Below are positions 4,572 through 64,000 of a DNA stretch of 64,000 nucleotides, piece after piece (position 1 is the first letter of the stretch; every line of letters begins with the position of its first letter). A program made the position numbers and the translations under genes. The stretch lies in assembly GCA_041651535.1 (NCBI GenBank), contig JBAZIZ010000005.1, positions 26,188 to 90,187 of the forward strand, written 5' to 3'. The notes below the pieces were generated by a model, which saw only the letters and a program-made list of their open reading frames with translations, ran no database searches and was not told the origin of the DNA. The DNA comes from Patescibacteria group bacterium (GTDB lineage: Bacteria; Patescibacteriota; Patescibacteriia; Magasanikbacterales; UBA922).

Positions 4572-5016
4572 TAAACAAAAAATTTATTTGCTTGTATTTA
4601 TATTTTTTTTATTTTTTGCTTTTTTTTGGCAAAGATTTTATTTTCAAAAAATTGAAATCAATCTAGCTAATCAAGAATTAAAAGTTTTAGTAGCTAAAAG
4701 TATTTACCAACAAAAAAAAGGTTTGGGTGGTAGAAAAGAAATGAAAAATTTTGATGCCATGCTTTTTCCTTATAATTCTTTAGCTAGACATGGAATAGTC
4801 ATGCGAGATATGAATTTTGCGATTGATATTATCTGGCTAAAAAATACTGAAATAGTTGATATGGCACCACATGTTGATCCAGAACCAGGCGTAGATGAAG
4901 CAAAATTACATATTTATTACCCAAGAACAGTTGCAAATATGGTTTTGGAACTCCCAGCTGGTTTTATAGAACAAAATCAGTTAAAAATAGGTGATAAAAT
5001 TTTGATTGTGGAGTAA
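4555..5016 (+). CDS. DUF192-family protein (secreted or membrane-anchored)
   Basis: N-terminal hydrophobic segment. The central region MLFPYNS...MRDMNFAIDIIWL...ELPAGFIE resembles DUF192 (COG1430). It overlaps the upstream gene by 17 nt. Confidence 0.45.
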   Translation: MSLKNNKQKIYLLVFIFFLFFAFFWQRFYFQKIEINLANQELKVLVAKSIYQQKKGLGGRKEMKNFDAMLFPYNSLARHGIVMRDMNFAIDIIWLKNTEIVDMAPHVDPEPGVDEAKLHIYYPRTVANMVLELPAGFIEQNQLKIGDKILIVE

Positions 5017-5088
5017 AAACTTGACTTTTTAGTGATGATAAGATAAAATAGAGCTGTTTCCCATTAATTTAATAATAATCATTTAAAT

Positions 5089-5403
5089 ATGTTCGCAGTC
5101 ATTGAAACAGGCGGTAAACAATATTTGGTCAAAAAAGGCGACAAAATAAAAATAGAAAAATTAAACGCCGAAGTTGATTCGGAAGTAAGTTTTGACAAAG
5201 TTTTGCTTACTAGCGAAGAAGACGGAAAAAATACTAAAATTGGAACTCCTTATTTAGTAGGAACACAAGTTGTTGCTAAAGTTTTGGAAAATTCACGTAG
5301 TAAAAAAATTAGAGTGATCAAATACAAAAGAAAAGTTAGATACAAAAGAGCTAATGGTCATCGCCAACATTATACAAAAGTTTTGATAGAAAATATAAAA
5401 TAA
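5089..5403 (+). CDS. rplU: 50S ribosomal protein L21
   Basis: MFAVIETGGKQYLVKKGDKIKIEKL... is the typical L21 N-terminus. 104 aa with a basic C-terminus. Confidence 0.9.
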   Translation: MFAVIETGGKQYLVKKGDKIKIEKLNAEVDSEVSFDKVLLTSEEDGKNTKIGTPYLVGTQVVAKVLENSRSKKIRVIKYKRKVRYKRANGHRQHYTKVLIENIK

Positions 5404-5458
5404 TCCGCACTAAGCGGGTTTTTTATTTATTAAAAAATCCACTTATTTGAGTGGATTT
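5404..5458. terminator. Bidirectional terminator pair between rplU and the convergent gene
   Basis: Hairpin ccgcactaagcggg plus T-run (5404-5426), and hairpin atccacttatttgagtggat (5437-5456) flanked by A/T runs. Confidence 0.5.
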
Positions 5459-5475
5459 TATTTTAAAATAGTTTA

Positions 5476-7233
5476 TTAATTTTTTAGTATTAAATTTTCG
5501 TTTACTTTTTTTATTTCTTTTTCTATAAAAGTATCAACAGCTGCCAAAGAATTATTTTTTAAAATAAGTAAATTTTTGGTTTCTTCTATATTTTTTGGAG
5601 TAAAAGCAACTTCAAAATAAACACCAACTTTTTCATGAGGATTTAAAGCTGTTGTTTCCCAATGAATATTATTATTTTTTTCATTAAAAATTATATTGTT
5701 TCCTTTGCTCACACTAGTTTTGCCAGTAAAAGAAATGTTAGCTGATAAATTTGTATCTAAAATTAAATTTTTTATACGACTACTGCCATTTTCAATTTCA
5801 AGAAAAACCCAATATTTGCTTTCTTTGTTAATTTCTGGTGGATTTGGTCCACGTCCGATTTGGTCTCCTTCGTTTGTGTAATATTTTAAACTTTGGTCAA
5901 AAATAATATTTGTGCCTATTTTAACTTCAGAAGTTTGACTATCAATTTCAAAAATATCCAAACTATTTTCAACTTCAGATTTAATTACCGGAGTTAAAAC
6001 TAATTTTATGTCAGTTCCTTGTGGATAAGTTAAAATTGGTAAGATAATTTCAATATTTTTTTCTTCGTTTTGAACCAATTTATTTATAATATTAATTTTT
6101 AAATTTTTATTGTTATAAGTAGCAATAGAATTTAAGTCTTTTATTTTATTACTATCAATTAAGGTTGTATCAATCGGAATATTTATTTCTAGGTTTTTTA
6201 AATCAGTGTCACCAGAATTTTTTAAATTTAAGTTTAATTTTAAATTTTCAGCTGGAGAAACTGAATTGATATTGTTTTGCCAATTGCTAGTTAAAATTAA
6301 GTCTGGATGTAAAATCACAAAATTATGAGAGATAGTATTTTGTTTTATTACTGTTTGATTAATTTCTAAACTAGGTGTGATAGAATAATTTATTTGCTTT
6401 GACTCAAAAGAATTTTTTAATTTTAAAATTACGGAAAATAATTGTTCTGTTTGTGGTTTAAGTTCGGAAATTTTTATAGTTGGCTCACCATAAATTACTG
6501 AAAAATTTTCATTTTCTAAATTGATTTCTATGTTATTTAAAATTAATTCACCATCATTTTTTATTTTCAATTTGATCGGAGTACTACCGTAGTCTAGGAT
6601 ATTATTATTAGCAATAATTTCAGTTTGTAATACTGAACCACGTGGTATAGTGATAAGTGGAATATATTTTTCTTCAATTCTAGATTTGTCTTCTTGTTTA
6701 TAAACCAATTTAGCATGAATAAAGTGGTGTTCGTCAGGAGTGCCGTAAAACCAACCAGAAATCATCACTGAACCACATTCACCAGCTTTGATATCTAACA
6801 AAGAGAATTCATTAGTTTTTTTATCAAAATTTTCTGGCAAAGTTTTATCAAGCATAAAACCTTGAGGTAATTCAATTTTTAAAATTGAATCTTCCATTTT
6901 TACCGTACTTTCATTTTTATAACTAATTTTGTAAGTGATATAATCACCACTTTTAATTTTTGTATTTGGTTGTTCAATATTTATGTAAACTAAATCAGTA
7001 ATTGTTGGGTCATAAGTCCACCAAAAAATTGTGGTAAATCCAATAAAAAAAATACTAATTAAAAGACATAAATCAAAAATAAAAAGTTTTTTGGCATGAA
7101 CATAATTTAGATGATAAACTTTTTTATAATGTTTTTCTGCTAAATGAATAGGGTAGATAATTGTAGCCAAAAACCATTTTAGAGGTGAATGACGTAAATG
7201 ATGCAGAGTAAAATAAGTTTCAAAAAATTTCAT
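5476..7233 (-). CDS. Hypothetical membrane-anchored protein with a large beta-rich extracytoplasmic region
   Basis: 585-aa ORF. N-terminal TM helix (FIFDLCLLISIFFIGFTTIFWW), then a long Asn/Ile/Lys-rich region. No recognised catalytic motif. Confidence 0.5.
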   Translation of the reverse strand: MKFFETYFTLHHLRHSPLKWFLATIIYPIHLAEKHYKKVYHLNYVHAKKLFIFDLCLLISIFFIGFTTIFWWTYDPTITDLVYINIEQPNTKIKSGDYITYKISYKNESTVKMEDSILKIELPQGFMLDKTLPENFDKKTNEFSLLDIKAGECGSVMISGWFYGTPDEHHFIHAKLVYKQEDKSRIEEKYIPLITIPRGSVLQTEIIANNNILDYGSTPIKLKIKNDGELILNNIEINLENENFSVIYGEPTIKISELKPQTEQLFSVILKLKNSFESKQINYSITPSLEINQTVIKQNTISHNFVILHPDLILTSNWQNNINSVSPAENLKLNLNLKNSGDTDLKNLEINIPIDTTLIDSNKIKDLNSIATYNNKNLKINIINKLVQNEEKNIEIILPILTYPQGTDIKLVLTPVIKSEVENSLDIFEIDSQTSEVKIGTNIIFDQSLKYYTNEGDQIGRGPNPPEINKESKYWVFLEIENGSSRIKNLILDTNLSANISFTGKTSVSKGNNIIFNEKNNNIHWETTALNPHEKVGVYFEVAFTPKNIEETKNLLILKNNSLAAVDTFIEKEIKKVNENLILKN

Positions 7234-7315
7234 ATTTAAGTATTAAAACTAGTTATAGTATATAGAAAAAACCATAAAAATTCAATTTATTTTTAAAATT
7301 TTAGTAAAAAAATAT

Positions 7316-7344
7316 TTGACAAAGATAAAAAAATTTATTATTAT
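7316..7344 (+). promoter_or_regulatory. Sigma-70-like promoter (TTGACA-17-TATTAT) with AGGAGG RBS for the gene at 7386
   Basis: ttgaca at 7316-7321, a 17-nt spacer, tattat at 7339-7344. aggagg at 7375-7380 lies 5 nt before the ATG at 7386. Confidence 0.5.
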
Positions 7345-7385
7345 GTTTGGCAAATTGCCCTTTTTATTTTTTTTAGGAGGAAAAA

Positions 7386-7823
7386 ATGTACAAGTTGAAA
7401 AGTGTTTTTTATGTTTTAGGTTGGATTGCTGGAATCGCAGCTGTGATTTCGGCGGGCATGACAGCTTATTTGGCTGTTGAGAGTCCAAGTATACCTTTTT
7501 ATAGGTATGCTGTGGATCCAATTGCAGGTTCGTTGGTTTTTATGTTTTTTGTTTGGAGGATAAAGAAATCTTGGAGAAAGATTCTTCTCCTTAAAATAAA
7601 GGACTTGTCGGTCGTGATTTTTTTGCCGATAATGTCTCTTGGATTTCTTTACGGGATTATAACTCATAAAGGAATTCTTGTGAGTTTACAGACTGGGCTT
7701 ATTTGGATCTGTTGGCTTGTATTTGTTTTTTTTGTGTTGTTTGTTGCACTTTTGATTGTTTTGGCGGCAATAACAACCAAAGAATATAACAAGCAGAGGA
7801 GGAAATCCTACTCGGCGGATTAA
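7386..7823 (+). CDS. Hypothetical multi-pass membrane protein
   Basis: 145 aa with four hydrophobic helices. It has a strong promoter and RBS upstream. Confidence 0.55.
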   Translation: MYKLKSVFYVLGWIAGIAAVISAGMTAYLAVESPSIPFYRYAVDPIAGSLVFMFFVWRIKKSWRKILLLKIKDLSVVIFLPIMSLGFLYGIITHKGILVSLQTGLIWICWLVFVFFVLFVALLIVLAAITTKEYNKQRRKSYSAD

Positions 7824-7856
7824 AAAATAAGAGAGCCACTTTATTACCGGAACCCT

Positions 7857-9017
7857 GTGTTCCGGTTGTTTTTTTATACAGAAAATGTTAAGATAAACAA
7901 AAATATGAATAAAAATATTTTTTCATTTTTAATATTTATTTTTTTAATTTGTTTAATATTTTTAAGCGGATTTTTTGTCCGTAAATATTTTTTTCTTACA
8001 AAAAATGATTTGGTAAAAAATGATAAATTAATTCCTTTAAATATAAATAAAGCTGATTTTTTAAATAAAAAAAATGATAAGGTTTTTGCCTATCCTCAGA
8101 AAAAATTTTCTTTGTTTATTGCTGGTGATATTATGCTTGATCGGAGTGTGCAAGAAAAAATTACTAGTAGCGGAAAAGGGGATTATTCTTTTCCTTTTGC
8201 CTTTATCAATGAAGATTTAAAAACATACAATATTAAACTCGCAAATTTGGAAGGTCCTATTACTGATTTCAAATCCATTGCTGAACCAAATAAACCAATT
8301 TTTACCTTTTCAACGCAGTTTTTACCGATATTATCAGAAAATTTTGATTTGTTTAATTTGGCAAATAATCATACTTATAATTTTGGTTTTAATGGTCTTT
8401 TGCAGACTCGTGATTATTTATCTAAAAATAATCTAAATTATTTTGGAGACCCAAATAATGAACAGCAAAATCTTTCTTTTGTGATAAAACAAAATGATTT
8501 GAAAATTGGGGTTATTTCTTATAATGATTTAATTGATTTTGATTTTAATATTGTTTTGGATGAAATTGAAAAAATAAAATCAGATCAAGTTAATTTTATA
8601 ATTGTTTTTCCGCATTGGGGGACAGAATATGTTTATCGTCCAAATAGTAAACAAATTGAAGAAGCTCATTTACTGATTGATGCTGGGGCTGATTTGATTG
8701 TCGGTGGTCATCCACATGTGATTCAATCAATTGAAAAATACAAAGAAAAATTTATTTTTTATAGTTTAGGAAATTTTGTTTTTGATCAATATTTTGCTGA
8801 TGACACTATGACAGGTTTGACTTTAGTTTTAAATTTTTGGCAGGAAAAAAATGAAATAAAAAATGAGATTGAAATTAAACCAATAAAAATAAATAAAGAT
8901 TGTCAGGTGTTTTTTGCTGATCAAATTCAAAATGAAGAGACTTTAAAATTTTTGATAGACAATTCAGATATTGATATTATTTTACAAAATCAAATTTTGT
9001 CAGGAATTTTAAAATAA
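7857..9017 (+). CDS. CapA/PgsA-like metallophosphatase (poly-gamma-glutamate synthesis family)
   Basis: N-terminal signal or TM segment, GDIMLDRSV, ANNHTYNFG and GGHPHVIQ motifs of the CapA family. The true start is probably the internal ATG giving MNKNIFSFLIFIF. Confidence 0.6.
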   Translation: MFRLFFYTENVKINKNMNKNIFSFLIFIFLICLIFLSGFFVRKYFFLTKNDLVKNDKLIPLNINKADFLNKKNDKVFAYPQKKFSLFIAGDIMLDRSVQEKITSSGKGDYSFPFAFINEDLKTYNIKLANLEGPITDFKSIAEPNKPIFTFSTQFLPILSENFDLFNLANNHTYNFGFNGLLQTRDYLSKNNLNYFGDPNNEQQNLSFVIKQNDLKIGVISYNDLIDFDFNIVLDEIEKIKSDQVNFIIVFPHWGTEYVYRPNSKQIEEAHLLIDAGADLIVGGHPHVIQSIEKYKEKFIFYSLGNFVFDQYFADDTMTGLTLVLNFWQEKNEIKNEIEIKPIKINKDCQVFFADQIQNEETLKFLIDNSDIDIILQNQILSGILK

Positions 9018-49413: not shown

Positions 49414-49550
49414 AAAATAAATTATGGAGAGCCCCGCCGAGTCGGGGTAAACCCCGTCAAGGCGGGGTAAAGTGGCTGGGCTTATCCCGCCTCGGTGGGT
49501 TGAAGTTGAAAGTGAAAAATTGTTTGTATTTTTAAATAAATTATGGAGAG
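49414..49550 (+). repeat. 17-bp direct repeat (aataaattatggagag) duplicating the tRNA-Ser(CGA) upstream region and 5' end, flanking a GC-rich hairpin-rich 103-bp segment
   Basis: Copies at 49414-49430 and 49534-49550. Between them is ccccgccgagtcggggtaaaccccgtcaaggcggggtaaagtggctgggcttatcccgcctcggtggg, which is not tRNA-like. Confidence 0.5.
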
Positions 49551-49634
49551 ATGTCTGAGTTGGTTGAAAGTACCGCTCTCGAAAAGCGGCAGGGTGAATA
49601 GCCCTCGCGGGTTCGAATCCCGCTCTCTCCGCCA
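49545..49634 (+). tRNA. tRNA-Ser (anticodon CGA), class II, CCA encoded
   Basis: ggagagatgtctgagttggttgaaagtaccgctctCGAaaagcggcagggtgaatagccctcgcgggttcgaatcccgctctctccgcca. Long variable arm, T-loop ttcgaat. Confidence 0.85.
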
Positions 49635-50560: not shown

Positions 50561-50776
50561 ATGAACAATAAAAAAAATCAATCAAAAATTGGTGAAAATA
50601 TAAGGAGACTTCGTCTATATAATAAAATGTCACAAGATGGTTTGTCGAAAAAAGCTGATTTGGCTTTTTATACCATTTCAAAAATAGAAGCAGGGTCTAC
50701 CCCTAATCCCACAATCGAAACAGTAAAGAAAATCGCAGACGCTCTCAGTGTTTCGCTTGATGAACTTTTAAAATAA
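50561..50776 (+). CDS. XRE-family HTH protein; likely controller (C) protein of the downstream RM gene
   Basis: IGENIRRLRLYNKMSQDGLSKKADLAFYTISKIEAGSTPNPTIETVKKIADALSVSLDEL. 71 aa. It ends 5 nt before the RM gene. Confidence 0.7.
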   Translation: MNNKKNQSKIGENIRRLRLYNKMSQDGLSKKADLAFYTISKIEAGSTPNPTIETVKKIADALSVSLDELLK

Positions 50777-50781
50777 TCTAT

Positions 50782-53463
50782 ATGAAAAAAGAAGAGGCAA
50801 AAATACAGATAACAAAACTCATTGAAAAGTATCAACGAGTTGTTGAGGCTGGGAAATTAAAAGATTACAACGAGGCCCAAACAAGAAATGAATTCATTGA
50901 GCCTTTTTTTGAATTCCTTGGATGGGACATGAGAAATTTAACTAATGACAATGAGGTTACCACCGAAGAAAATGTATCTGGAGGTAGAGTCGACTTAGCT
51001 TTTAGACTTAATAATATACCAACATTTTTCTTGGAAGCAAAAGCGATGAAGGTTGATTTGGATGAGTGGAAATGGGCAGAACAAGCTATAAATTACAGTT
51101 GGAACAAGAATGTAACTTGGGCGGTTTTAACTGACTTTGAAAGTATAAAAATTTTTAATGCTGAGATGCCACCAAAAAGCATTTCTCAGAATCTTTTTAT
51201 AGAAATAAAATGCCAAGATTATATTAATCGTTTTGATCAAATTTGGCTTTTATCAAAAGAGAGTTTTGAACAGAAACTCTTAGATAGAGAAGCTCAAAAA
51301 TGGGGTAAGCTTACGCAAAGAAAACAGGTTGGAGAAAAACTTTTTGAAGATTTAATGACTTGGCGCATTTTATTGACTAACGATTTCAAAAAACAGAATA
51401 ATTTATCAGGTGAAGAATTGGATGAAGGAGTACAAAGAATTCTTGATCGTCTCATTTTTATACGAACAGCCGAAGATAGAAAAATTGAACCTAATATACT
51501 CATTGGCATTCCTCGAGGTGGAAGATCAGAGCAGTATAAACAATTAATAAAAGTATTTCGTGATTTTGATGATGGTTTTAACTCTAAACTTTTTGCTCCG
51601 CATTATTGTGAGGAATGGAAAATAAGCGACAAGGTGGTTAGTGAAGTTATTAACGGACTTTATGAAACTAAAGATGGTTATCGATATGATTTTTCTGTAA
51701 TTTCCGCAGATGTATTAGGGGGAATTTATGAACAATATTTAAGTTTTGTTCAGGTTCGTAAAGGCGAAGACAAAACAAAATCAAAGAGAAAATCTCAAGG
51801 GATTTATTATACGCCGAAACATGTTGTGGAGTTTATTATAAAGGAAACTTTAGGGGAAGTTTTAAAGAAAACTAAACCAAAAGATTTTTCAAAAATTAGA
51901 ATTTTAGATCCTGCTTGCGGGTCAGGCTCATTTTTAGGAGCTGCATATGATAAGATTTTGGATACACTAACAAAACAAAGTCCGCAAACTTCACTTTTTG
52001 CTAAATTTAACATCTTAAAAGACAATATTTTTGGAGTTGATCTTGATGTTCAGGCTGTTGAAATAGCTCAACTTAATTTATTGTTAAAAGTGTTATCGCA
52101 AAAAACCAAGCTACCAACATTGCAACATAATTTAGCTTCTGGTAATTCACTTGTTTCTGGAGAAAATGAAAAAATCGAACAATATTTTGGTTTAAATTAT
52201 CGAGAACAAAAACCATTTAACTTTGAGCTGGAATTTAATAACGTTTTTGGTCAAGGTGGCTTTGATGTCGTAATAGGAAATCCGCCATATGTAAGAAATC
52301 GTGAATTGCCTGGTAATCTAAAATCTTTTTACGATAATAACTTCGTTACCGCATCTGGCCAATATGATATTTATCAGTTATTTTTTGAAAAGGCTATAAC
52401 GCTACTTAAAGAAAATGGGTATCTTGGTTTTATTACCTCGAATAAATATGCAATTGCTAATTATGGCGAGAAACTTCGGGAATATATTTTAAAGAATTGT
52501 GAAATTATAAAAATTATTGATGTATCCAATGTTGATGTATTTAAGGATGCTGCAACATATCCCTATATAATAATTCTTCAGAAAAAGAAAAAAATAAACA
52601 AAAAACATAAAATAAAAATAAAGAAGGTCGCAGATCTATCGGAATTATCAGACGGAAAATATGAAGAAATTGAACAGGTTGCGTTTGAAAATAATAAAGG
52701 GAAAACGTTTACTTTAAAAACTTTTCCGACTTTTTTTGATAAAATTGAAAAAGTATCAACAAAACTTGGTGAAATTGCAACGATTAAAGAAACTATACAC
52801 ACTGGAAATGTTAGAAACAAATTAATTGTAGATGAAAAAATTGATAATAACTGTAAGAAGTTGCTGGCTGGCAAAGATTGTCATAGATATAGTTTTGAGT
52901 GGCGAGGAAAATATATTCGTTATGATAAAACTTTAATAGATAAAACCAAGGGAGAATACGGCAACCTTTGTGATTCGAAATATTTTGATAATCCAAAGAT
53001 TCTTTTAAGAGAAATTGCTAACAAAATAGAGTGTTGTTTTGATGAAAATAAATATTATACGCTTAATAAAGTTTATGCAGTGTTGTTAAATGAAAATAAT
53101 TATTCATATCTATACTTATTGGCGCTATTAAACTCAAAATTGCTAACATATTATTTTAGAGAAAAGTTCGAAGAGACTCATGTTAGGGGTGGATATTTGC
53201 AATTTAAAAAAGTTTATACATCTCAAATTCCGATAGCCATAATCAATTTCAAAAATAAAGAAGAAAATAATATCTACAACAAACTTGTCAAGTTGTCGGA
53301 GCAGATGGTAAATCTTCATAAGGAGTTGCAATCTGTGGCTGTTAATACCGACAAATATAACTACTTGAAAGTCGAAATAGAAAAAGTTGATAAAGAAATA
53401 GATGAAGTAGTCTATAAGATTTATGGAATTACTGACGACGAGAAACGTGTAATTGAAAAATAA
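50782..53463 (+). CDS. Type IIG restriction-modification enzyme (MmeI-like: N-terminal PD-(D/E)xK nuclease, gamma-class N6-adenine methyltransferase, C-terminal target-recognition domain)
   Basis: Nuclease motif VDLAF...FLEAKAM. MTase motif I ILDPACGSGSFLGAA and motif IV GNPPYV. 893 aa, the size of MmeI-family enzymes. Confidence 0.75.
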   Translation: MKKEEAKIQITKLIEKYQRVVEAGKLKDYNEAQTRNEFIEPFFEFLGWDMRNLTNDNEVTTEENVSGGRVDLAFRLNNIPTFFLEAKAMKVDLDEWKWAEQAINYSWNKNVTWAVLTDFESIKIFNAEMPPKSISQNLFIEIKCQDYINRFDQIWLLSKESFEQKLLDREAQKWGKLTQRKQVGEKLFEDLMTWRILLTNDFKKQNNLSGEELDEGVQRILDRLIFIRTAEDRKIEPNILIGIPRGGRSEQYKQLIKVFRDFDDGFNSKLFAPHYCEEWKISDKVVSEVINGLYETKDGYRYDFSVISADVLGGIYEQYLSFVQVRKGEDKTKSKRKSQGIYYTPKHVVEFIIKETLGEVLKKTKPKDFSKIRILDPACGSGSFLGAAYDKILDTLTKQSPQTSLFAKFNILKDNIFGVDLDVQAVEIAQLNLLLKVLSQKTKLPTLQHNLASGNSLVSGENEKIEQYFGLNYREQKPFNFELEFNNVFGQGGFDVVIGNPPYVRNRELPGNLKSFYDNNFVTASGQYDIYQLFFEKAITLLKENGYLGFITSNKYAIANYGEKLREYILKNCEIIKIIDVSNVDVFKDAATYPYIIILQKKKKINKKHKIKIKKVADLSELSDGKYEEIEQVAFENNKGKTFTLKTFPTFFDKIEKVSTKLGEIATIKETIHTGNVRNKLIVDEKIDNNCKKLLAGKDCHRYSFEWRGKYIRYDKTLIDKTKGEYGNLCDSKYFDNPKILLREIANKIECCFDENKYYTLNKVYAVLLNENNYSYLYLLALLNSKLLTYYFREKFEETHVRGGYLQFKKVYTSQIPIAIINFKNKEENNIYNKLVKLSEQMVNLHKELQSVAVNTDKYNYLKVEIEKVDKEIDEVVYKIYGITDDEKRVIEK

Positions 53464-54372: not shown

Positions 54373-55710
54373 TTATTCTTCTAACAGTGTCAACCTCTTT
54401 TCTTTTAGTACAATCCTACTTCTTAAATTAGCCAGCAGTTCTCGTTTCTCAATAGCACTGCCTTCCTTGAGGACATATTTGGCGTAGTCTTTCATATCCA
54501 CATCTTGTCTTTTGGATTTAATCGGCTTCTCGCCGAAGACTATGCCTTGAAATTTATTAAACCTCTCAACTTCCAGCTCTAACTTATTAAGCATACCCAG
54601 TTCGTTAATACTGACCCTATCTATTATCCTCAGCAGTTCAGCAATCAATTCTTCTTCTCTTATGTATTTATTTTTGCAGAATCTGTCTTTGCCCCGTGAG
54701 CATCCATAATAAATATAATGAGCAGTTGTACCGTCTTTTAGTTGTTTGTATTTGCTTTCCGCTGATATACCTGATCCGCAGAGTCCGCAAGTTATTAATT
54801 TAGTGAAGGCAAACTCTTTGCTTTCTCTTTGAATATTATCTCTCTTTAACTGCGCCTTAGCTTTCTCGAATAGTTCTTGAGTAATAATTGGCTTATGCTT
54901 TCCTTGATACCAATTACCACTGCCAGTCGGTCGTTCAAAGACGCCGTAGTAGAAAGTGTTATCTAACACTCTGTATATTCCGCTTAGAGTTAGAGGCTTA
55001 TTACCTCTGGTATAGAAGTTTAATTCATGGGTTAGCCAGTGATATAATCTTCGTCCGCTGTATTTTTCATAAGCAACTTTTTCAAACATCTGTTTAATAA
55101 CAGGCGCTCGTTTAGGATCAATAATCACTTGGCATTTTTTGTCATTGCGGTTTTGGTTTAAGTATCCCAGAGGTGCTACTCCAACCCATAACCCCATTTC
55201 CGCTCTAGTCCTTAATCCTCGTCTAACATTAACGCCCCTGTTGTCGTTTTCTAACTTAGCTTGCGATCCTAGAATCATCAGTAAGAATTTTTCATTAGGG
55301 TTATTAGAAAACTTCTGGCCGTAGGTTCTAATTTCTTTTAACACCCCTTGATCCATTAAATCGACAATAGCGCCAAGGTCGCCAGCGTTTCTACTGATAC
55401 GATCAGGCGCCCAAGTAAGGATGGCATTGAATTTGCCTTGCCTGATGTCGCCGATCAGCTCATTAAAAACCTGGCGTTGACCAGTCTCTTTGGCGCTATG
55501 GGATTCACGCTTAATTTCGACCACATTCAAGTTTTCTTTGACCGCCAAATCCAACATCTCTTTGACTTGGCTGTCTATTGAAAGAACTTGCCGTTCTTCC
55601 GATTCCGTCGACTTTCTGGCATAGAGGCAGTATTTCGGCGGTTCCTCGGGCTTTTGATTTGTTGTTGGAGCTTGTAGCCCGCCCAGCCCCGGGTAATTTA
55701 CGTTTATCAT
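54373..55710 (-). CDS. Large serine recombinase (integrase)
   Basis: Resolvase catalytic domain with YARKSTESEE (nucleophilic Ser), recombinase domain, zinc-ribbon CGLCG...YYGC, coiled-coil C-terminus. 445 aa. Confidence 0.8.
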   Translation of the reverse strand: MINVNYPGLGGLQAPTTNQKPEEPPKYCLYARKSTESEERQVLSIDSQVKEMLDLAVKENLNVVEIKRESHSAKETGQRQVFNELIGDIRQGKFNAILTWAPDRISRNAGDLGAIVDLMDQGVLKEIRTYGQKFSNNPNEKFLLMILGSQAKLENDNRGVNVRRGLRTRAEMGLWVGVAPLGYLNQNRNDKKCQVIIDPKRAPVIKQMFEKVAYEKYSGRRLYHWLTHELNFYTRGNKPLTLSGIYRVLDNTFYYGVFERPTGSGNWYQGKHKPIITQELFEKAKAQLKRDNIQRESKEFAFTKLITCGLCGSGISAESKYKQLKDGTTAHYIYYGCSRGKDRFCKNKYIREEELIAELLRIIDRVSINELGMLNKLELEVERFNKFQGIVFGEKPIKSKRQDVDMKDYAKYVLKEGSAIEKRELLANLRSRIVLKEKRLTLLEE

Positions 55711-55795
55711 ATACTACAATGAATGACGCAAAGAACCCAGGGCGTCTAGACCACTAGCTGTTGGTAACTAAAGCCCTTAAAAGTCTTAAGATTCC

Positions 55796-57298
55796 TTATA
55801 TATAATCCCAATCATATTTATTACCTTGCTGTCCAGTAATTCTAATCGCTCGTCCTTCATTAGGATCTCTACCTATCCTTGCTTCACCGCTTAAGTCATC
55901 AATTACTCCTAATATGGCATAAACAAAGGCATCAGCTAAATCATCATGTTTCTCGGCACCCATGGCTACTATTTGCCTGATTAAAATATCGCTACCTTCT
56001 TTAGGGAAGAGTATAGTGCCATTTTTGATCAAATGAGTAATTGATCTAAGTCTAGCAATCTTACTTAAACCGCCAGGCTTCATTTCCTTTACTGGGATGT
56101 TTTTGCTTTTTAAGTGTTGGGACAAGGCTGTTTGATAATTAACACTCTCAATACATAGTTTAGTCGGACTTGATGATAAAGCATTTGATCTTATCATACA
56201 AGCTTCAACTTGTGCTGGAAAATCTAGCCTTTCGTTTAACATGTCTGGCAACACATATATTCTTCTTGATTCTCCGTACCCATAAACCTTTACAGATACA
56301 AACGCCGTAAAATCGCCTTCTTCAGAAATCGCTAAATCTACTCCAGTCAATATCCTTTTGCAATCTTCGTATCCAGGAATTGAATCATAATAATGTATCC
56401 AGTCTGGTTTAACTACCCAGTCTTCGCCTGGAATTATTTTTAACATAAACTCTCTTTGATAAGCCGCCTCATTGGCGGTTTTCTGGTGTTCTAGTTCTAT
56501 ATCGTCCATACTTCGATATTTACCAGGCCAAATGATTTCTTCATTTTCACCAAGAAGAGGATATTGTTTATATATACCATTCATTTTATTATTTTCAATC
56601 ATTTTTCTAATGCGCATCAGGAGAGAATCTTCATGTAGCAAGTTGCCGACAAATATGAATTGAGCGCCTTTGTCTCCGATAGACATTACTTCGCTCATTA
56701 CCCAGTTAAATGTTTTGTCTCGCATCTCTTGAGTTTTAACTGAATGCAAATCTTCTACATCATCTAGAATTACTAAGTCGGGACGATGAGAACCGTGTTT
56801 CATTCCTCTAATGCTTTGGTCAATCGAGGCGGCAGTGATCCTGGCGTTATATTTAGGAATAACCAAAGAAAAGGAGCGCCATTCGTCACTTTCTTCCTGA
56901 AATGGTCCAAGGTCATTTCTCAATAGCTCATTTCGCTCAAGTTCTTCCTTTATGTTTTTTAGGTGTTGTTTGGCCTGGGGCATTGTTTGTGCGAGTATCA
57001 AGATGAACTTTCTTTGTTTTTTGCCAAGTATCGACCAAATAGGCATTGATGTCGTCATGATCGTACTTTTACCACTACCTCTAAAAGCAACAAATACAGC
57101 CGTTGTCCAATTGTCACGTTCTGTAATATCAAACATTTCATAATGGAAAGGAGCAACCTCATAAGTTACGTGTTGAGCTAAGTAAATAAGAAAAAACCAA
57201 AGATGACTATTTTTAGTTACCTCACGTCGGACAACCCGACGTTTAATAATTTCTGGCGTAATACCTAAAATACTGTTTGTCTTATTTAAAGTGTTCAT
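55796..57298 (-). CDS. Phage terminase large subunit
   Basis: Walker A FRGSGKST, Walker B DLVILDDVED, C-terminal RNase-H-like nuclease region. 500 aa. Confidence 0.7.
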   Translation of the reverse strand: MNTLNKTNSILGITPEIIKRRVVRREVTKNSHLWFFLIYLAQHVTYEVAPFHYEMFDITERDNWTTAVFVAFRGSGKSTIMTTSMPIWSILGKKQRKFILILAQTMPQAKQHLKNIKEELERNELLRNDLGPFQEESDEWRSFSLVIPKYNARITAASIDQSIRGMKHGSHRPDLVILDDVEDLHSVKTQEMRDKTFNWVMSEVMSIGDKGAQFIFVGNLLHEDSLLMRIRKMIENNKMNGIYKQYPLLGENEEIIWPGKYRSMDDIELEHQKTANEAAYQREFMLKIIPGEDWVVKPDWIHYYDSIPGYEDCKRILTGVDLAISEEGDFTAFVSVKVYGYGESRRIYVLPDMLNERLDFPAQVEACMIRSNALSSSPTKLCIESVNYQTALSQHLKSKNIPVKEMKPGGLSKIARLRSITHLIKNGTILFPKEGSDILIRQIVAMGAEKHDDLADAFVYAILGVIDDLSGEARIGRDPNEGRAIRITGQQGNKYDWDYI

Positions 57299-57690
57299 AC
57301 GTTTTCTTTTGGATTGTTTTTAAAGGAAGCCAGCTCAAGAGCTTTTTTAACGAGTTCTTCTTGTTCTGGAGTCAGTTGATCACTGACACTTAGATTGCCA
57401 CTCAGCTCTATCTTATTGGCATAAGCCTTATGATGGTGCTTGAGCCAAAACATTACCGCTGTAATGTTTCTTTCTTTAATAGCTTGGAGTAGTTGACTTT
57501 CGGCAATATCAGTGATTAATCCGCTTCCTTCAGTGACTGCCTCGTCGACTTCGAGAGCAAAGACTGGATCTTCCTTCTTCCAGCGGTACAGCGAGGCTCG
57601 GGATATTCCCGAGCGCTCGCAGGCCAGCTGAATGATTGGAGTTTTACGCAATATCTCCAAAAAGCGCTTTCTGGCTTCTTTGCTAATCAT
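57295..57690 (-). CDS. Phage terminase small subunit (HTH type)
   Basis: HTH GISRASLYRWKKEDPVF followed by ...AVMFWLKHHHKAYANKIEL, typical of P27-type TerS. It overlaps the TerL start by 4 nt. Confidence 0.6.
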   Translation of the reverse strand: MISKEARKRFLEILRKTPIIQLACERSGISRASLYRWKKEDPVFALEVDEAVTEGSGLITDIAESQLLQAIKERNITAVMFWLKHHHKAYANKIELSGNLSVSDQLTPEQEELVKKALELASFKNNPKENV

Positions 57691-57697
57691 ATAAGTC

Positions 57698-59026
57698 CTA
57701 ATTAATTTTTTTAGCTTTAAGCCCAGTTAACTTTTCCCAACGCTTGCGGATTACTTCGGCATAGACAGGAGATTTTTCCATAATAAAACAGCGCCTGCCA
57801 AGTTTAGTTGAGGCGATAAGAGTCGATCCACTACCACCGAACGGCTCAACAACGATATCATTTCTTTTGGTTAAGACTTTGATATATGGAATAAGGATCT
57901 CAATTGGCTTAGTGCCAAAGATAATTCCTTGGCCTGATGATTTCTCATCAGAAGCATTAAACTCAATGAAGTCGGTTGGACAATATTTTTTGCCCTTCTC
58001 ATATGATTCCCAATTAGGCCTACCAGAAGTAGCATAAAGAGCCGCCATAAATTCATTCTGCAGTAGTTCATCGTCTTCTGGCTCATCATTCATCTTGAAA
58101 TCAGGCGTTGATCCTAGCATGGCAAAATCATACTTGTTAAAAAACTTATATTTAGAAGCAAACCCTTGGACTCGGTTAGGTAAATGCCAAATAATGAGAT
58201 TCCGTATCTTCCAGCGCTTAGCTACTTCTGCCCACATGATCGGCAGATTTTTCCAACATTCATATGACAGGATGGAAAAATCTTCTTTAGCAACTTCTTG
58301 GATATTATCCATCCATAGCTCAACAAAGTTATCGGGTAAACTATCAGTTTCTAAGTATTTACGATCACGCTTCAAACCGAAGCCTTCTGTCGGTTGCCCG
58401 TTTTTCTTCTTGCCATGCAAGTAATCCAAAATATATGGTTCATCGGTACAGCACATATCCGCCTTTTCTCCATCCATGAGCTTGAGCACGTCGACTTCAA
58501 TAGTACTATCACCGCACATTAGTCTTGATCCGTTTAGGTCATAGACATCGCCTTTCTGAATCTCAATATTTTTAATATCCAGCTTTTCCAATTCTTTCTT
58601 CAGGTCGAATACTTCAGGAACATCTTCGATATCAAAAATGTCATCCAACTCCTCGGAAGAGAAGCCGACATCTTTAAGGAAGTTTTCATCAAATTTAGCT
58701 AGCAGTTCAAAATCAAAATCACCAGTATTTTTGTTCAGACGGATATTGAGTTCTTTTTCTTTCTCAATATCGGAAATATGAACATAGACGACTGGTACTT
58801 CTTGATAGTTTAGTTCTTTAAGAACTTCCAAGCGGAAGTGTCCACCTATGAGAATATTTTTTCGTTCATCGGCACTATTGGCGATGAGCGGATCTACACA
58901 ACCATATTTCTTAATGGATTCTTTGAGCTGATCCATTTGTTCTTGGCTGTGCTTGCGAGGATTGTATTCGCTCGCTTTCAAGTCCATGATCGGGACTTGG
59001 ACGATTTGCAACGTGTTGCTTGTCAT
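57698..59026 (-). CDS. ParB-like nuclease domain fused to a DNA N4/N6 methyltransferase
   Basis: N-terminal ParB/Srx motif (KASEYNPRKHS...DPLIAN). C-terminal MTase with TDEPY (DPPY-like) and VVEPFGGSGSTLIAS motif I. Confidence 0.7.
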   Translation of the reverse strand: MTSNTLQIVQVPIMDLKASEYNPRKHSQEQMDQLKESIKKYGCVDPLIANSADERKNILIGGHFRLEVLKELNYQEVPVVYVHISDIEKEKELNIRLNKNTGDFDFELLAKFDENFLKDVGFSSEELDDIFDIEDVPEVFDLKKELEKLDIKNIEIQKGDVYDLNGSRLMCGDSTIEVDVLKLMDGEKADMCCTDEPYILDYLHGKKKNGQPTEGFGLKRDRKYLETDSLPDNFVELWMDNIQEVAKEDFSILSYECWKNLPIMWAEVAKRWKIRNLIIWHLPNRVQGFASKYKFFNKYDFAMLGSTPDFKMNDEPEDDELLQNEFMAALYATSGRPNWESYEKGKKYCPTDFIEFNASDEKSSGQGIIFGTKPIEILIPYIKVLTKRNDIVVEPFGGSGSTLIASTKLGRRCFIMEKSPVYAEVIRKRWEKLTGLKAKKIN

Positions 59027-59418: not shown

Positions 59419-59610
59419 ATGACCAAAAATAGCAAAGATGAGATAATAACTTTAAGCCAGGCTTGTGAATTATTACACTGCCACCCCAACACTCTGCGCA
59501 AGTGGGATAACAAGGGATTTTTAAAAGCGATAAGGTTCGGCGTGCGTGGTGATAGAAGATATCACAGGGTTGATATCGAAAAATTAATTTTGGAAATGAA
59601 GAATAAATAA
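59419..59610 (+). CDS. Excisionase-like/MerR-type HTH protein (candidate recombination directionality factor)
   Basis: ITLSQACELLHCHPNTLRKWDNKGFLKAIRFGVRGDRRYHRVDIEKL fits the HTH_17/excisionase pattern. Divergent from the recombinase-terminase operon. Confidence 0.5.
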   Translation: MTKNSKDEIITLSQACELLHCHPNTLRKWDNKGFLKAIRFGVRGDRRYHRVDIEKLILEMKNK

Positions 59611-59654
59611 ATGCAATGTTAAAATAATAAGAATGTAGACAGTTAAGTTTTAAT

Positions 59655-60824
59655 ATGCCTCAGATAACAAAAAAACAACTAAGAGAAAAAGTGGTTACTG
59701 TTTTAAAAAAACAGGGATATAAAGTTGGCGACCACGGTTTTTCGTTAAAAGATAATACGAGAGAAACAAAAAGAGATGTTCATTCTTTAGCCAAGAAAGA
59801 AAGAATAATTAAAAGCGAAAAGTTTATTTTGAATAATATTGATTTTATAAGCGCTAATATGGTTAGTGGCGCTGATTTAGACATAGAAAAAATAGAGCCA
59901 AAAATTATTGAAGTTAAAGAAGGTTCAAAATACGAAAAATTATTTCGATGGTGGAATTTGGTTTGGTGGAGCTTGCCCTATGAACACGCCTATGGTCGAC
60001 AGATGAGATTTGTTGTTTGGGACAAATATCATAAAGCGCCAATAGGGTTGATTGGTTTGCAGAGTCCGATTTTAAGTTGGAGCGTAAGAGATGAACATCT
60101 TGGTATAAATAAACAAGATAGGGATTATTGGGTCAATCAGTCTATGAGTGCACAAAGATTGGGAGCTTTACCACCTTATAACTATATTCTCGGCGGTAAA
60201 TTAGTGGCATCGTTAATGACAACGGATATCATTAGAAAGAAATTTGAGAAAAAGTATTCTGGCAAGAAAACTATTTTAAAAAATAGAAAATTACCATCAA
60301 AATTGCTTTTTATAACAACCACAGGAGCATATGGTAAAAGCAGTGTTTATAATAGATTAAAATATAATGGTGATGTTATTTCTAAATTTATTGGTTACAC
60401 TAAAGGTAGTGGCTCCTTTCATATCCCAAATACATTATTTGAAGACTTTATTAAATATTTGAAAAAAAGAAATTACGATGTTAAAAGAGGTTATGGTAGT
60501 GGCCCTTCAAGAAAAATGAGACTTATAAATCAAGCTATGGATTGTTTAGGAATATCAAATGGATCTAATCATGGAATACAGAGAGCTGTTTATTTGTTTC
60601 CGATGGCTAAAAATTTAGAAGATGTGATTCAAAAAGGTAAAAAACCAGCTTGGGTAAACAGGTCAATTAATGAAATAACTGAATACTGGAAAGAACGATG
60701 GATAATGCCAAGAATATCACAAAGAGAAAATTATAAAGATTTTTCCGCTAAACGTTTCATCGATGAAACTCGATTAGAAGTAGAATCTTTCTGTAAAAAT
60801 AAGGGGAAAATAAAGAAAAAATAA
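59655..60824 (+). CDS. Unknown protein, first gene of a coupled operon with NurA-like and HerA-like genes
   Basis: 389 aa. Basic N-terminus, Trp-rich core (FRWWNLVWWSLPYEHAYGRQMRFVVWDKYH). No motif I can assign. Stop is 2 nt before the next ATG. Confidence 0.5.
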   Translation: MPQITKKQLREKVVTVLKKQGYKVGDHGFSLKDNTRETKRDVHSLAKKERIIKSEKFILNNIDFISANMVSGADLDIEKIEPKIIEVKEGSKYEKLFRWWNLVWWSLPYEHAYGRQMRFVVWDKYHKAPIGLIGLQSPILSWSVRDEHLGINKQDRDYWVNQSMSAQRLGALPPYNYILGGKLVASLMTTDIIRKKFEKKYSGKKTILKNRKLPSKLLFITTTGAYGKSSVYNRLKYNGDVISKFIGYTKGSGSFHIPNTLFEDFIKYLKKRNYDVKRGYGSGPSRKMRLINQAMDCLGISNGSNHGIQRAVYLFPMAKNLEDVIQKGKKPAWVNRSINEITEYWKERWIMPRISQRENYKDFSAKRFIDETRLEVESFCKNKGKIKKK

Positions 60825-60825
60825 T

Positions 60826-62034
60826 ATGGACGTTAATAGCCAAGACAAAAAAAATTATGCCTATCTGCCAGATGATTTATTAGTTCAAATACTGGACAAA
60901 GTCCCAGACACTGTTGGAAAGATGAATAGAATGTTTGATACTCAGGATGAGCCAATAAAAGAAGGGATAGAAGATCTAAGACGCAAAAATTTAATTAATA
61001 AATTAACGAGCTTGGATTATTGTTATTCTCTTATTGCTGTAGATGGTAGTAATATTGTAGAAAAAATGACTGGTACTGATATATTGTTGGCTATGGGTGT
61101 TGGCGTTGAAGGATTATCAGAAGACAAAAACACTGAATGGGGAGAAAAAAATAATCAGTATTATAGTTGGCAAACAGTTCTTCCTCACGGAGAGGCAAAT
61201 GCTAGATTAATTCAGGGAATTATGTTTTTGATGGAATCAAGCGTATTGGCTCAATCTAATCATGAAATAAGAATAATGGATGGCAGTCATTTAAATCCAA
61301 TTATCAAAATAAATAGCATGCTTAGTGCCAGTGATGAAAACGCCGGCAAAGAGTATTGTGAAGCTTTAAAGGAATTTTTAAAAGAAAAATATAATAAGAT
61401 TATACCAGACATACCAGACATAGTATCTTCTGCCTTAAATAACGATCATATTATTGCAATGGTAAAATATAGCTCCTCTAGAGATATGCTAGATAGTCAT
61501 CTAAAAGAACACAAGGATATTAGATTGGATGATAAAACATTCTTTTCTTTGGGGCTTAACGAAGATGAATATACTACGCCATTACCTGTTGGGCAAAGTA
61601 AGGATGAGCGGCAGACATGGGGAGATCTTCATATGAGCTGTAACCTTGTTGCAATTGAGGAAAAAGATGCTTTGAATAAAGCGTTGAAGCAGTCATTAGA
61701 CCCTATAAAAACCAGAGACTCCAAGGGTCAAGAGAAAGAGTCTATCATTTATTTCACTTATTATAAACCATATCAAGATGGACCAGCTTACAGAATTGAA
61801 ATAAAAAAAACATTAGCACAAGATAAAGCCAGGCTAGAAAAATATTTACTTAGTATTAAAAAACAAATAATATTTCCAGAAATTAGAGAACCATATCCGC
61901 AATACTTAGTTGATTTAATGGCTAAAAGTATTGCAATGGGATTATTTTCAATACAAGAAGCAATTAGACTATCGCCTGATTTGAAGATAGATAGAGGTAA
62001 ATTTAATTTATTATTTAATTATAGAACTAAATAA
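60826..62034 (+). CDS. NurA-like nuclease-domain protein
   Basis: LDYCYSLIAVDGSNIV places a DGS Asp motif near aa 70, as in the NurA 5'-3' nuclease family. 402 aa. Directly precedes a HerA-like ATPase. Confidence 0.45.
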   Translation: MDVNSQDKKNYAYLPDDLLVQILDKVPDTVGKMNRMFDTQDEPIKEGIEDLRRKNLINKLTSLDYCYSLIAVDGSNIVEKMTGTDILLAMGVGVEGLSEDKNTEWGEKNNQYYSWQTVLPHGEANARLIQGIMFLMESSVLAQSNHEIRIMDGSHLNPIIKINSMLSASDENAGKEYCEALKEFLKEKYNKIIPDIPDIVSSALNNDHIIAMVKYSSSRDMLDSHLKEHKDIRLDDKTFFSLGLNEDEYTTPLPVGQSKDERQTWGDLHMSCNLVAIEEKDALNKALKQSLDPIKTRDSKGQEKESIIYFTYYKPYQDGPAYRIEIKKTLAQDKARLEKYLLSIKKQIIFPEIREPYPQYLVDLMAKSIAMGLFSIQEAIRLSPDLKIDRGKFNLLFNYRTK

Positions 62035-62042
62035 ATAAAAAT

Positions 62043-63878
62043 ATGTCAGAAACAACTAATTCAAAAACTGTCCTTGATGTAATTAATGGCAAGAACGAGC
62101 CAATTGGTATTACTAGTTCTCCTAGTAATACTTTGGATATAGTAATTGATATAACAGAAGCAAAGAAGGCGGAAAGAGCTCTGGGCCAAATGGTTTATGT
62201 TGCTTTGAAAGAAGATGGTAAGGACATTGTTGTTATCGGACAAATTATTTCTATCGAAACTCAAAATAGGTGGCATGAAGATCCGTCTTTTAAGGGCGTT
62301 ATAAAAAGACATGGAAAATTGCCACATTTAAGTGGAACTGCTGATAATAGAATTGCTACTATTAGCGTACAAGCGTGCTATCTGTTAGATAAGAATGATC
62401 CCGAGGGATATATACTCGGTACATCACCTTCTACTGGGGAGAGTGTGCAGAAAATGGATAATGATGTAATGACTGCATTAATGAAAAATCATGAAAAGCA
62501 TATAACCTATATGGGTAAAGTTTATGGGACTGACGTTGATTTACCGTTTTGGTTTAAGCATTTTGATAAAACTAATGGTGATGAATTGGGTGCCGGTGAT
62601 GCGTACCATATAGGCGTGTTTGGTAAAACTGGTTCAGGAAAAACCGTGACGTCAGCTTTTATGCTTCTTGGTTATTTGAAAAATAAAAGCAACTTAAGTA
62701 TTTTAGTTTTAGATCCTCAAAAGCAATTTTATTTAGATGCAGATTGTTTACCCGATAAAGCTAAAATTGAAGACAAAGTTAAAGCCTCGGGCTTTAGTTA
62801 TGAGAGATACAGTATATTAGATGATGTTTGTTTGCCTGGTAATTTATATGAACTTTTTGTCGAGTTATTAGTTAGTAACGGTTTTATAAAGAAAGCTTTT
62901 TATCCGATATATACTGATGAAAAAATTGAAGCTGCAAAGTTGGCAATTTTAGATTATTTAATTGGAAGGAGTAATCATCCAGCATTTTCTTTAAATAATA
63001 TTATTAATGGATCAGGAACTAAGATTGGTCGTCAAGATTTATTAAAAGATATGCTAACTAATTTTTCTTCAGTTGATGAGATTGATGAGACGAAGGGTAG
63101 TAAAACTGTTAAAAAAATAAAATATTCAACTTTTGTAACAAATATTTATGGCACTCCGACAACACAGGAGAGGCTTGTTAATAGAATTAATACAGCCTTA
63201 GGTAGATTTGATAAAGAAACTGATATGATTGAAAGATGGGAGTCTGCCTTGGAAATTTTTTCGACTAAGAAAAAAGACGGAAGTAGTAATAAAGTACAGG
63301 TTGACGATATAGTTGATAAAACTGTAAATAAAAACGGCAATTTTATTGTTCTAGATTTGAGTCCAAAGGATGGTGGGATTGAAAATGAGAATTTACAGGC
63401 TTTATTTGTAAAAATCATTGAATCTTCAATAGTTGAAGCTGGTGCAAAATTATATGCTCAAGGGAAGAAAGCTAATTGTTTGATAGTTATGGATGAGGCT
63501 CACAGATTTATTTCAAAGGAATCTCCTGATTCAAGAATTAAAGAATTGACCAATGAGATTATTGGCTCTGTCAGAACAACCAGAAAATATGGAATTGGTT
63601 ATATGTTTATTACTCAAACTATAGAATCTTTGGATGAAGAAATATTAAGACAAATGAGAATATTTGGTTTTGGTTATGGCTTAACAGCGGGAAGTGAGTT
63701 AAGAAAAATAAGCGAGATAGTTAATAACCCATCAGCTATCCAGTTGTATAAGTCATTTATTGATCCAAGTAGCAATAATAAATTTCCTTTTATGTTTTTT
63801 GGACCGATCTCTCCATTATCATTTACCGGGTCGCCGTTGTTTATGGAAGTTTATAAAGAAATTGCAAAATTTAAATAA
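62043..63878 (+). CDS. HerA/FtsK-superfamily ATPase (DUF87/HerA-like, with N-terminal HAS-barrel-like region)
   Basis: Walker A GVFGKTGSGKT and Walker B CLIVMDEAHRF (hhhhDEAH) at HerA-like spacing. 611 aa. Confidence 0.7.
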   Translation: MSETTNSKTVLDVINGKNEPIGITSSPSNTLDIVIDITEAKKAERALGQMVYVALKEDGKDIVVIGQIISIETQNRWHEDPSFKGVIKRHGKLPHLSGTADNRIATISVQACYLLDKNDPEGYILGTSPSTGESVQKMDNDVMTALMKNHEKHITYMGKVYGTDVDLPFWFKHFDKTNGDELGAGDAYHIGVFGKTGSGKTVTSAFMLLGYLKNKSNLSILVLDPQKQFYLDADCLPDKAKIEDKVKASGFSYERYSILDDVCLPGNLYELFVELLVSNGFIKKAFYPIYTDEKIEAAKLAILDYLIGRSNHPAFSLNNIINGSGTKIGRQDLLKDMLTNFSSVDEIDETKGSKTVKKIKYSTFVTNIYGTPTTQERLVNRINTALGRFDKETDMIERWESALEIFSTKKKDGSSNKVQVDDIVDKTVNKNGNFIVLDLSPKDGGIENENLQALFVKIIESSIVEAGAKLYAQGKKANCLIVMDEAHRFISKESPDSRIKELTNEIIGSVRTTRKYGIGYMFITQTIESLDEEILRQMRIFGFGYGLTAGSELRKISEIVNNPSAIQLYKSFIDPSSNNKFPFMFFGPISPLSFTGSPLFMEVYKEIAKFK

Positions 63879-63885
63879 CTATTTA

Positions 63886-64000
63886 TGGGGACTGAAATGG
63901 GCGTTAAAGAATATCAACAATATTGTAAAGACAAACTTTTGAGTTTATATGATTCAGTTGATGTTGAATGGAATCCATTTAAAAAATTTAATGTAGGCAA
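63886..64000 (+). CDS. Hypothetical protein, 5' fragment (continues beyond window); likely fourth gene of the same operon
   Basis: ATG 8 nt after the HerA-like stop. MGTEMGVKEYQQYCKDKLLSLYDSVDVEWNPFKKFNVGK... Confidence 0.3.

Follow-up and report, generated by a model that had tools for sequence, protein, structure and literature searches.

Type I Druantia (DruABCDE) begins with DruA, a full-length DUF4338 protein of GNAT fold, and contains as DruE a YprA-type helicase of 1,800-2,100 amino acids. TdpAB forms the restriction part of a phosphorothioate-based system of three genes, in which the modifier TdpC is combined with TdpA and TdpB. HerA rings around which an effector is organised are likewise known from defence (PMC11291478, PMC11472057, PMC11514289), and SIR2-HerA and DUF4297-HerA couple a HerA hexamer to an effector enzyme within a compact mobile operon (PMC11291478, PMC11472057). 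The HerA-NurA mechanism itself has been described for archaeal and Deinococcus machines (PMC3326311, PMC5715905, PMC9960219). The locus analysed here lies at the right end of a 64,000-nucleotide stretch of a Patescibacteria group bacterium (contig JBAZIZ010000005.1, positions 26,188 to 90,187 of the forward strand; the whole stretch is termed the window). It encodes a DruA-family protein, a NurA-family nuclease and a HerA-family ATPase, which together make up DruA-NurA-HerA, a three-gene cassette that is autonomous and horizontally mobile and represents a HerA-based, Druantia-related candidate for a defence system. The core genes are as follows.

59655..60824, plus strand: DruA-family protein (DUF4338), 389 amino acids, core gene 1
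60826..62034, plus strand: NurA-family nuclease (RNase H-like), 402 amino acids, core gene 2
62043..63878, plus strand: HerA/FtsK-superfamily ATPase, 611 amino acids, core gene 3

The four complete open reading frames (ORFs) at this end of the window, a helix-turn-helix gene and the three core genes, were all recovered on the plus strand where a preliminary description of this DNA had placed them. The NurA and HerA genes are separated by 8 nt, as it had reported, while the gap between the DruA and NurA genes is 1 nt and not 2 nt. A further ORF, also anticipated there, starts at 63885, 6 nt past the HerA stop codon, and is cut by the end of the window. A promoter and terminator scan of the operon performed no better than shuffled sequence.

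The 389-residue protein, in which the preliminary description could place no motif, is a full-length DruA/DUF4338 protein. The match to PF14236 (5.3e-66, 223 bits against a cut-off of 27) extends over residues 34-325 and profile positions 2-295 of 297, and the PADLOC DruA1 model is matched by residues 6-374 (1.7e-96). The protein can be aligned over its whole length with the DruA of a druABCDE operon, displays 30-36% identity over ~94% of its length to the DruA proteins of canonical operons, and shares with them the invariant residues GRxxR...D, RD, LGAxPPY...K, GxSxxYxRL, H and GxG. Similarly, annotation pipelines name its homologues 'Druantia anti-phage system protein DruA'. The architecture comprises a GNAT-fold core, with the alpha/beta topology that defines this fold, an N-terminal alpha/beta domain, a two-helix insertion at beta6/beta7 and a C-terminal helical domain. 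The segment at beta4-alpha3, LGALPPYNYILGGKLVA, carries the invariant residues Gly-170, Pro-173, Pro-174, Tyr-175 and Lys-182, with a Gly-Gly pair at the helix start. No functional study of DruA was found in the searched literature. Phage Mu Mom is a GNAT that glycylates adenine in double-stranded DNA with Gly-tRNA (PMC13219725). A Mom-like assignment would call for a specific sequence relationship that includes the R111/S124/D149/R151 active-site constellation; this is not found in DruA, whose profile aligns to Mu Mom with an hhalign probability of 0.6%, and the two have the fold alone in common. A weak match (E 0.005) in the PDB sequence search, between residues 29-128 with their Trp-rich helix and residues 480-575 of human SAMD9, is probably noise.

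The identification of a NurA-like nuclease and a HerA-like ATPase in the preliminary description is supported by profile matches and by the motifs it had listed. The 402-residue protein matches NurA PF09376 at 2.4e-10, with 40.8 bits where the cut-off is 21, and an RNase H-like fold of NurA type, on which the preliminary description had made its defence interpretation depend, is predicted by the structural model. Asp-73 (IAVDG, within the IAVDGS motif), Glu-137 (LME), Asp-152 (MDG) and Asp-363 (VDLMAK) are conserved without exception in 15 sequences of different phyla and, by motif analogy, would represent the conserved acidic catalytic set (D-E-D-D/H). The NurA profile retrieved zero matches among PDB sequences, and not one model of PADLOC v2.0.0 matches the NurA of the window, so that PADLOC annotation would probably report an orphan DruA alone. 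The family is small: among 1.84 billion representative proteins, the profile finds 406 at E<=1e-3 and 38 at E<=1e-30. HerA matches Pfam DUF87 at 1.8e-10 and PADLOC HerA models at up to 2e-11, and displays a Walker A motif (GVFGKTGSGKT; G194-K-T-G-S-G-K200-T) and a Walker B motif (LIVMDEAH; D484-E485), of which GKTGSGKT and MDEAH are invariant in 24 sequences. Against the PDB, the HerA profile identified TdpA (9.5e-8), the HerA partner of DUF4297 (8wiv, 3.6e-7), and the HerA partner of SIR2 (8xau) together with Sulfolobus HerA (1.4e-5). No N-terminal HAS-barrel was recognised by Pfam at E<=0.1, and the PDB profile alignments begin at about residue 125.

Loci of NurA relatives were collected from one-genome-per-species contigs (31 loci; 185,579 species), from metagenomes (80 loci) and by exact look-ups, and removal of duplicates left 96 non-redundant loci, treated as lineages and designated by L numbers, in more than 12 phyla. 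The locus scans were seeded by peptide patterns, which biases them towards the main clade, and the ORFs of related loci were called mechanically. Every one of the 83 loci assessable for DruA contained it, and HerA was found in 87 of 88, with L032 as the exception. The whole trio is seen in 76 loci, 65 of them with the order DruA-NurA-HerA and 11, every one cyanobacterial, with the order NurA-HerA-DruA; thus the linkage outlasts rearrangement. The start and stop codons of the trio genes overlap or abut, and the pairwise distances are correlated for NurA-HerA (0.93), DruA-NurA (0.78) and DruA-HerA (0.73; Mantel p=0.001), with DruA the fastest-diverging of the three proteins. A conserved fourth gene was not found: the 118 flanking ORFs gave 158 Pfam families, each present in at most 3 loci. 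The helix-turn-helix (HTH), 193-aa, DUF2779 and 225-aa genes that neighbour the trio in the window and its continuation co-occur with it, among ~120 loci searched with phmmer, solely in the near-identical element L044. Taken together, the linkage of DruA and HerA, their co-divergence, the lack of a recurrent flanking family and the confinement of the window neighbours to L044 define the unit as three genes and not four or more. The tight coupling proposed in the preliminary description therefore stands for DruA, NurA and HerA, while its four-gene composition does not, and the HTH gene is not specific to the trio. In L032 (9181-10815; Argonema antarcticum, a cyanobacterium) HerA and DruA are merged in a single 545-aa ORF that looks like a deletion derivative or pseudogene.

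The trio resembles type I Druantia in having a full-length GNAT-fold DruA as first gene and in being mobile and patchily distributed. In contrast, a HerA ring ATPase and a NurA nuclease occupy the place of DruB-E. Searches of all ORFs of ~120 trio loci with DruB-E of P. putida pKF715A as phmmer queries revealed no DruB, DruC, DruD or DruE, and the window operon contains no large helicase comparable to DruE; the absence of DruB-E thus separates the trio from type I Druantia. The relation to archaeal and Deinococcus HerA-NurA is remote in sequence (no PDB sequence match for NurA, ~1e-5 for HerA), and the trio differs from this lineage-wide housekeeping pair through its obligatory DruA, its mobility and its rarity. 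Mre11/Rad50 were found neither in the Pfam-annotated neighbourhoods inspected nor among recurrent families of the 118 flanking ORFs, which, together with the mobility, sets the trio apart from the archaeal repair operon. TdpAB (PDB 8wet), with HerA-like TdpA and NurA-like TdpB, is among the best structural and sequence matches, although the third gene of the trio encodes a GNAT-fold DruA and not a DndC-like sulfur-transfer enzyme. HerA homologues of the SIR2-HerA and DUF4297-HerA systems are likewise detectable, but in the trio HerA is partnered by NurA and DruA; the window operon has neither a SIR2 nor a DUF4297 domain (Pfam, PADLOC), in agreement with the preliminary description. MADS (mad1-8) was rejected, with generic matches only (HTH to mad1, 1e-9; HerA to mad8, 1.6e-13) and zero mad models matched by DruA or NurA. 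A description of DruA/DUF4338 together with NurA-HerA was not found in the full-text literature searched, whose coverage leaves out most subscription journals. The earlier proposal of an uncharacterised defence or DNA-processing system is a reasonable reading.

The carriers include Patescibacteria, Saccharibacteria, Omnitrophota, Acidobacteriota, Alpha-, Gamma- and Deltaproteobacteria, Bacteroidota, Ignavibacteriales, Firmicutes, Nitrospirales, Bdellovibrionales, Brocadiales, Anaerolineae and about ten cyanobacteria, with isolates of Microcystis, Cylindrospermum and Aphanizomenon among them. Across most of these phyla, with Patescibacteria, Acidobacteriota, Omnitrophota, Alpha- and Gammaproteobacteria, Bacteroidota and Firmicutes among them, NurA identity amounts to 62-77%, which points to recent horizontal spread. 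No relative of the trio was detected in 2.9 million viral contigs (IMG/VR, pattern scan) and no relative of NurA in 50,697 phage genomes (INPHARED). The window DruA matches phrog_19197 (5e-10), and its sole match in the phage genome collection is a distant DUF4338 protein of Pelagibacter phage Mosig (MT647606.1, 14496-15233; 26% identity). A phage origin of the trio was rejected on these searches. Similarly, the capsid/packaging linkage that the preliminary description had considered incompatible with a defence role was found in none of the related loci. Large serine recombinases lie within 10 kb of the trio in 11 unique loci and tyrosine integrases also occur nearby, as in L042, where a tyrosine-integrase, MobC/relaxase element with PemK adjoins the trio. 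Further neighbours are of toxin-antitoxin type (PIN-MazE in L005, AbiEii in L043), Shedu (L041, L018) and MmeI-type IIG restriction-modification enzymes or methyltransferases, one of which lies 6 kb from the trio in the window. Neighbours of these kinds are characteristic of mobile defence islands. L005, L006 and L040 carry the trio without any element genes, and the simple insertions of L006 and L040 among housekeeping genes indicate that it is self-sufficient and does not serve element replication or packaging. Immediately upstream of DruA, and in translational coupling, four lineages encode a DrmD-like SNF2-PLD helicase and a methyltransferase of MmeI/Eco57I type, an arrangement reminiscent of DISARM with HerA-NurA replacing the big helicase. 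These five-gene arrays are located as follows.

L004, 2533-8849
L010, 415-6838
L081, 2-5012
L104, 2261-8832

Two distant NurA-HerA pairs lack DruA. One, on a Rhizobium leguminosarum plasmid (L128, 4499-11874), is accompanied by proteins of 387 and 399 aa and a GHKL-type ATPase; the other, on a haloarchaeal plasmid of Natribaculum (L127, 4710-10271), by an HFX_2341-like protein and DUF7692. Pairs with such different partners suggest that NurA-HerA is a modular effector with exchangeable third components.

The window is located close to the 3' end of a 93-kb metagenomic contig (ERZ27247363 k141_1926505). Its trio is embedded in a phage-like mobile island whose remaining features are listed below.

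54373..59026, minus strand: mobile-island backbone with a large serine recombinase, TerL (phrog_38, 4.6e-77), a TerS-like protein and a ParB_N+N6_N4 methyltransferase (PHROGs)
59419..59610, plus strand: HTH protein of MerR/excisionase type, 63 amino acids (HTH_17, 1.5e-9), a neighbour outside the conserved unit
63885..64000, plus strand: 193-aa gene, 5' end only, adjacent cargo with the remainder beyond the window

The opposite-strand terminase/serine-recombinase operon and the excisionase-like HTH were both correctly recognised in the preliminary description. Its higher-GC DNA applies to the recombinase/terminase block (36-39%); the trio reaches only ~32%, the background being 25-31%. In the sister element L044, whose NurA is 91% identical to that of the window, a type III restriction-modification system (4697-8822; Mod 604 aa, Res 769 aa) that the window lacks is inserted exactly between the HTH and DruA genes, with gaps of 3 nt and 1 nt. 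The slot thus acts as a cargo hotspot that stacks defence modules, and the HTH gene, which heads this slot, is probably part of the island backbone. The 193-aa gene continues in L001 (11843-12424), and a protein identical to its product has been deposited from a Patescibacteria MAG. Its product has no match in Pfam, PHROG or PADLOC, belongs to a small family (67 clusters) with stand-alone homologues in other islands, and displays a PD-(D/E)xK-like pattern ('RLDIAV ... CVEIENK'), so that it may be a single-gene nuclease. Beyond the window, L001 12429-13928 encodes a 499-aa protein in which a Cas4-like N-terminal half (four cysteines, 'YEIKG') is fused to an exonuclease-like DUF2779 part ('LDYET'); a 225-aa protein follows downstream, and the two may form a separate nuclease module. 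The backbone of the window type, rearranged, adjoins the trio in L041/L079, L044 and L094. It is accompanied by variable defence-like cargo with no capsid genes in view and may represent a family of satellite-like integrative elements. Copies on Patescibacteria-type contigs are located as follows.

L041, 13036-18835
L044, 3-3972
L094, 15533-19203
L125, 1-2535

To the left of the backbone, a small Xre-type HTH ORF directly precedes an 893-aa MmeI-like type IIG restriction-modification enzyme (window 50562-53463; PADLOC 1e-136), a pair that, at the island's left end, resembles a controller-protein arrangement. A tRNA-Ser(cga) at 49545-49634 was the sole match of an Rfam scan of 49-64 kb. Just upstream of it, a GC-rich element of ~90 nt (49425-49515, plus strand) has the same 5' flank and first bases as the tRNA, AAATAAATTATGGAGAG being present at 49417-49433 and 49535-49551. 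This element, which folds at -43 kcal/mol (z = -3.3) and is without an Rfam match, could be a structured RNA or an integration remnant at the tRNA. Repeats of att type that would mark the island boundaries were sought in L001-L003 between the tRNA and the right flank, and none was found; the contig ends too soon.

The DruA-NurA-HerA cassette probably acts as a DNA-destroying anti-phage or anti-plasmid system. By analogy with characterised homologues, HerA would form a hexameric ATP-driven translocase of double-stranded DNA on which a NurA dimer would dock, and the DNA threaded through the ring would, as homology suggests, be cut or resected. DruA would act as an obligatory third subunit providing control or self/non-self discrimination, possibly by acylating nucleic acid or protein, by marking self DNA or by sensing an invader cue, and NurA-HerA would take the place that DruBCDE, with the helicase DruE, has in type I Druantia. 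A more far-reaching and rather doubtful proposal is that DruA, as a GNAT directed at nucleic acid, writes or reads a mark of acyl type and thereby gives a HerA-NurA shredder its self/non-self discrimination. The cassette would then be a compact three-gene system resembling restriction-modification but using neither methylation nor phosphorothioation; what DruA does in type I Druantia would be explained alike, and some lineages would carry a five-gene DISARM/Druantia-like super-system with the SNF2-PLD helicase and MmeI-type methyltransferase.

A service to the mobile element that carries the trio (its replication, partition or packaging, or its maintenance by addiction or inter-element competition) in place of host immunity appears unlikely. 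Many elements do pump DNA with HerA/FtsK ATPases, and the trio accompanies a serine recombinase and TerL/TerS/ParB-methyltransferase genes in the window, L041, L044 and L094. However, it is found with no element genes in L005, L006 and L040 and in quite different settings elsewhere (the L042 element, cyanobacterial chromosomes), viral contigs and phage genomes lack it, it occupies a cargo slot in which L044 carries type III restriction-modification genes, and a nuclease partner would be unexpected for a packaging or partition motor. Equally improbable, if not slightly more so, is a DNA-repair module in which bacterial HerA-NurA would resect ends during double-strand-break repair with DruA as accessory acetyltransferase. 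The NurA fold and HerA family do match those of the archaeal/Deinococcus repair complex (PMC9960219) and some loci lie among housekeeping genes, yet Mre11/Rad50 and other repair genes were found in zero inspected neighbourhoods and the obligatory partner DruA serves as the marker of a known defence system. In addition, the trio is rare and patchy (31 loci across 185,579 species representatives; 406 of 1.84 billion proteins at E<=1e-3), its ~65% identity across phyla reflects recent horizontal transfer and not vertical housekeeping descent, and it often adjoins recombinases, restriction-modification or toxin-antitoxin genes. A larger system of four or more genes, in which the HTH and downstream genes join the trio, has very little probability and is largely refuted by the comparative data. 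All these genes are co-directional with gaps of 1, 8, 6 and 4 nt, and the plus strand has no terminator-like site between them, but outside L044 the HTH, 193-aa, DUF2779 and 225-aa genes accompany the trio in 0 of ~94 other lineages, homologues of the 193-aa protein stand alone elsewhere, and the type III genes of L044 split the HTH from DruA. Finally, the pipeline label of Druantia DruA and the absence of DruB-E could be read as a solitary DruA, the orphan or degenerate remnant of a type I Druantia, lying by chance beside an unrelated NurA-HerA pair. The co-occurrence statistics refute this, its probability being negligible given linkage to DruA in 83 of 83 loci, linkage that survives permutation, overlapping or abutting codons, and co-divergence.

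Several observations nevertheless weigh against a DNA-destroying defence function for the cassette. An experimental phenotype for the trio is absent from the searched literature, and conservation of ~65% identity across phyla is unusually high for a defence system. L006, L040 and others lie among housekeeping or metabolic genes with other defence genes absent nearby, and the defence-island setting was judged from the inspected loci. At the protein level, the NurA model is of low confidence (predicted local distance difference test score, pLDDT, 61.5), which makes fine structural claims unsafe, a HAS-barrel in HerA was not recognised by Pfam, and the cofactor motif of DruA differs from the canonical acyl-CoA pyrophosphate-binding motif Q/R-x-x-G-x-G/A.

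DruA, the signature protein of type I Druantia, is here strictly coupled to a simpler and structurally well-understood HerA-NurA motor-nuclease pair. The trio offers a minimal three-gene context for the role of DruA, whether as modifier, sensor or regulator, and its presence in isolates and in Patescibacteria makes it experimentally approachable. The coupling also reveals DruA as a portable module able to combine with more than one kind of translocase/nuclease effector, and the repertoire of HerA-based defence, with its SIR2, DUF4297 and TdpB partners, would be widened to a true NurA partner.

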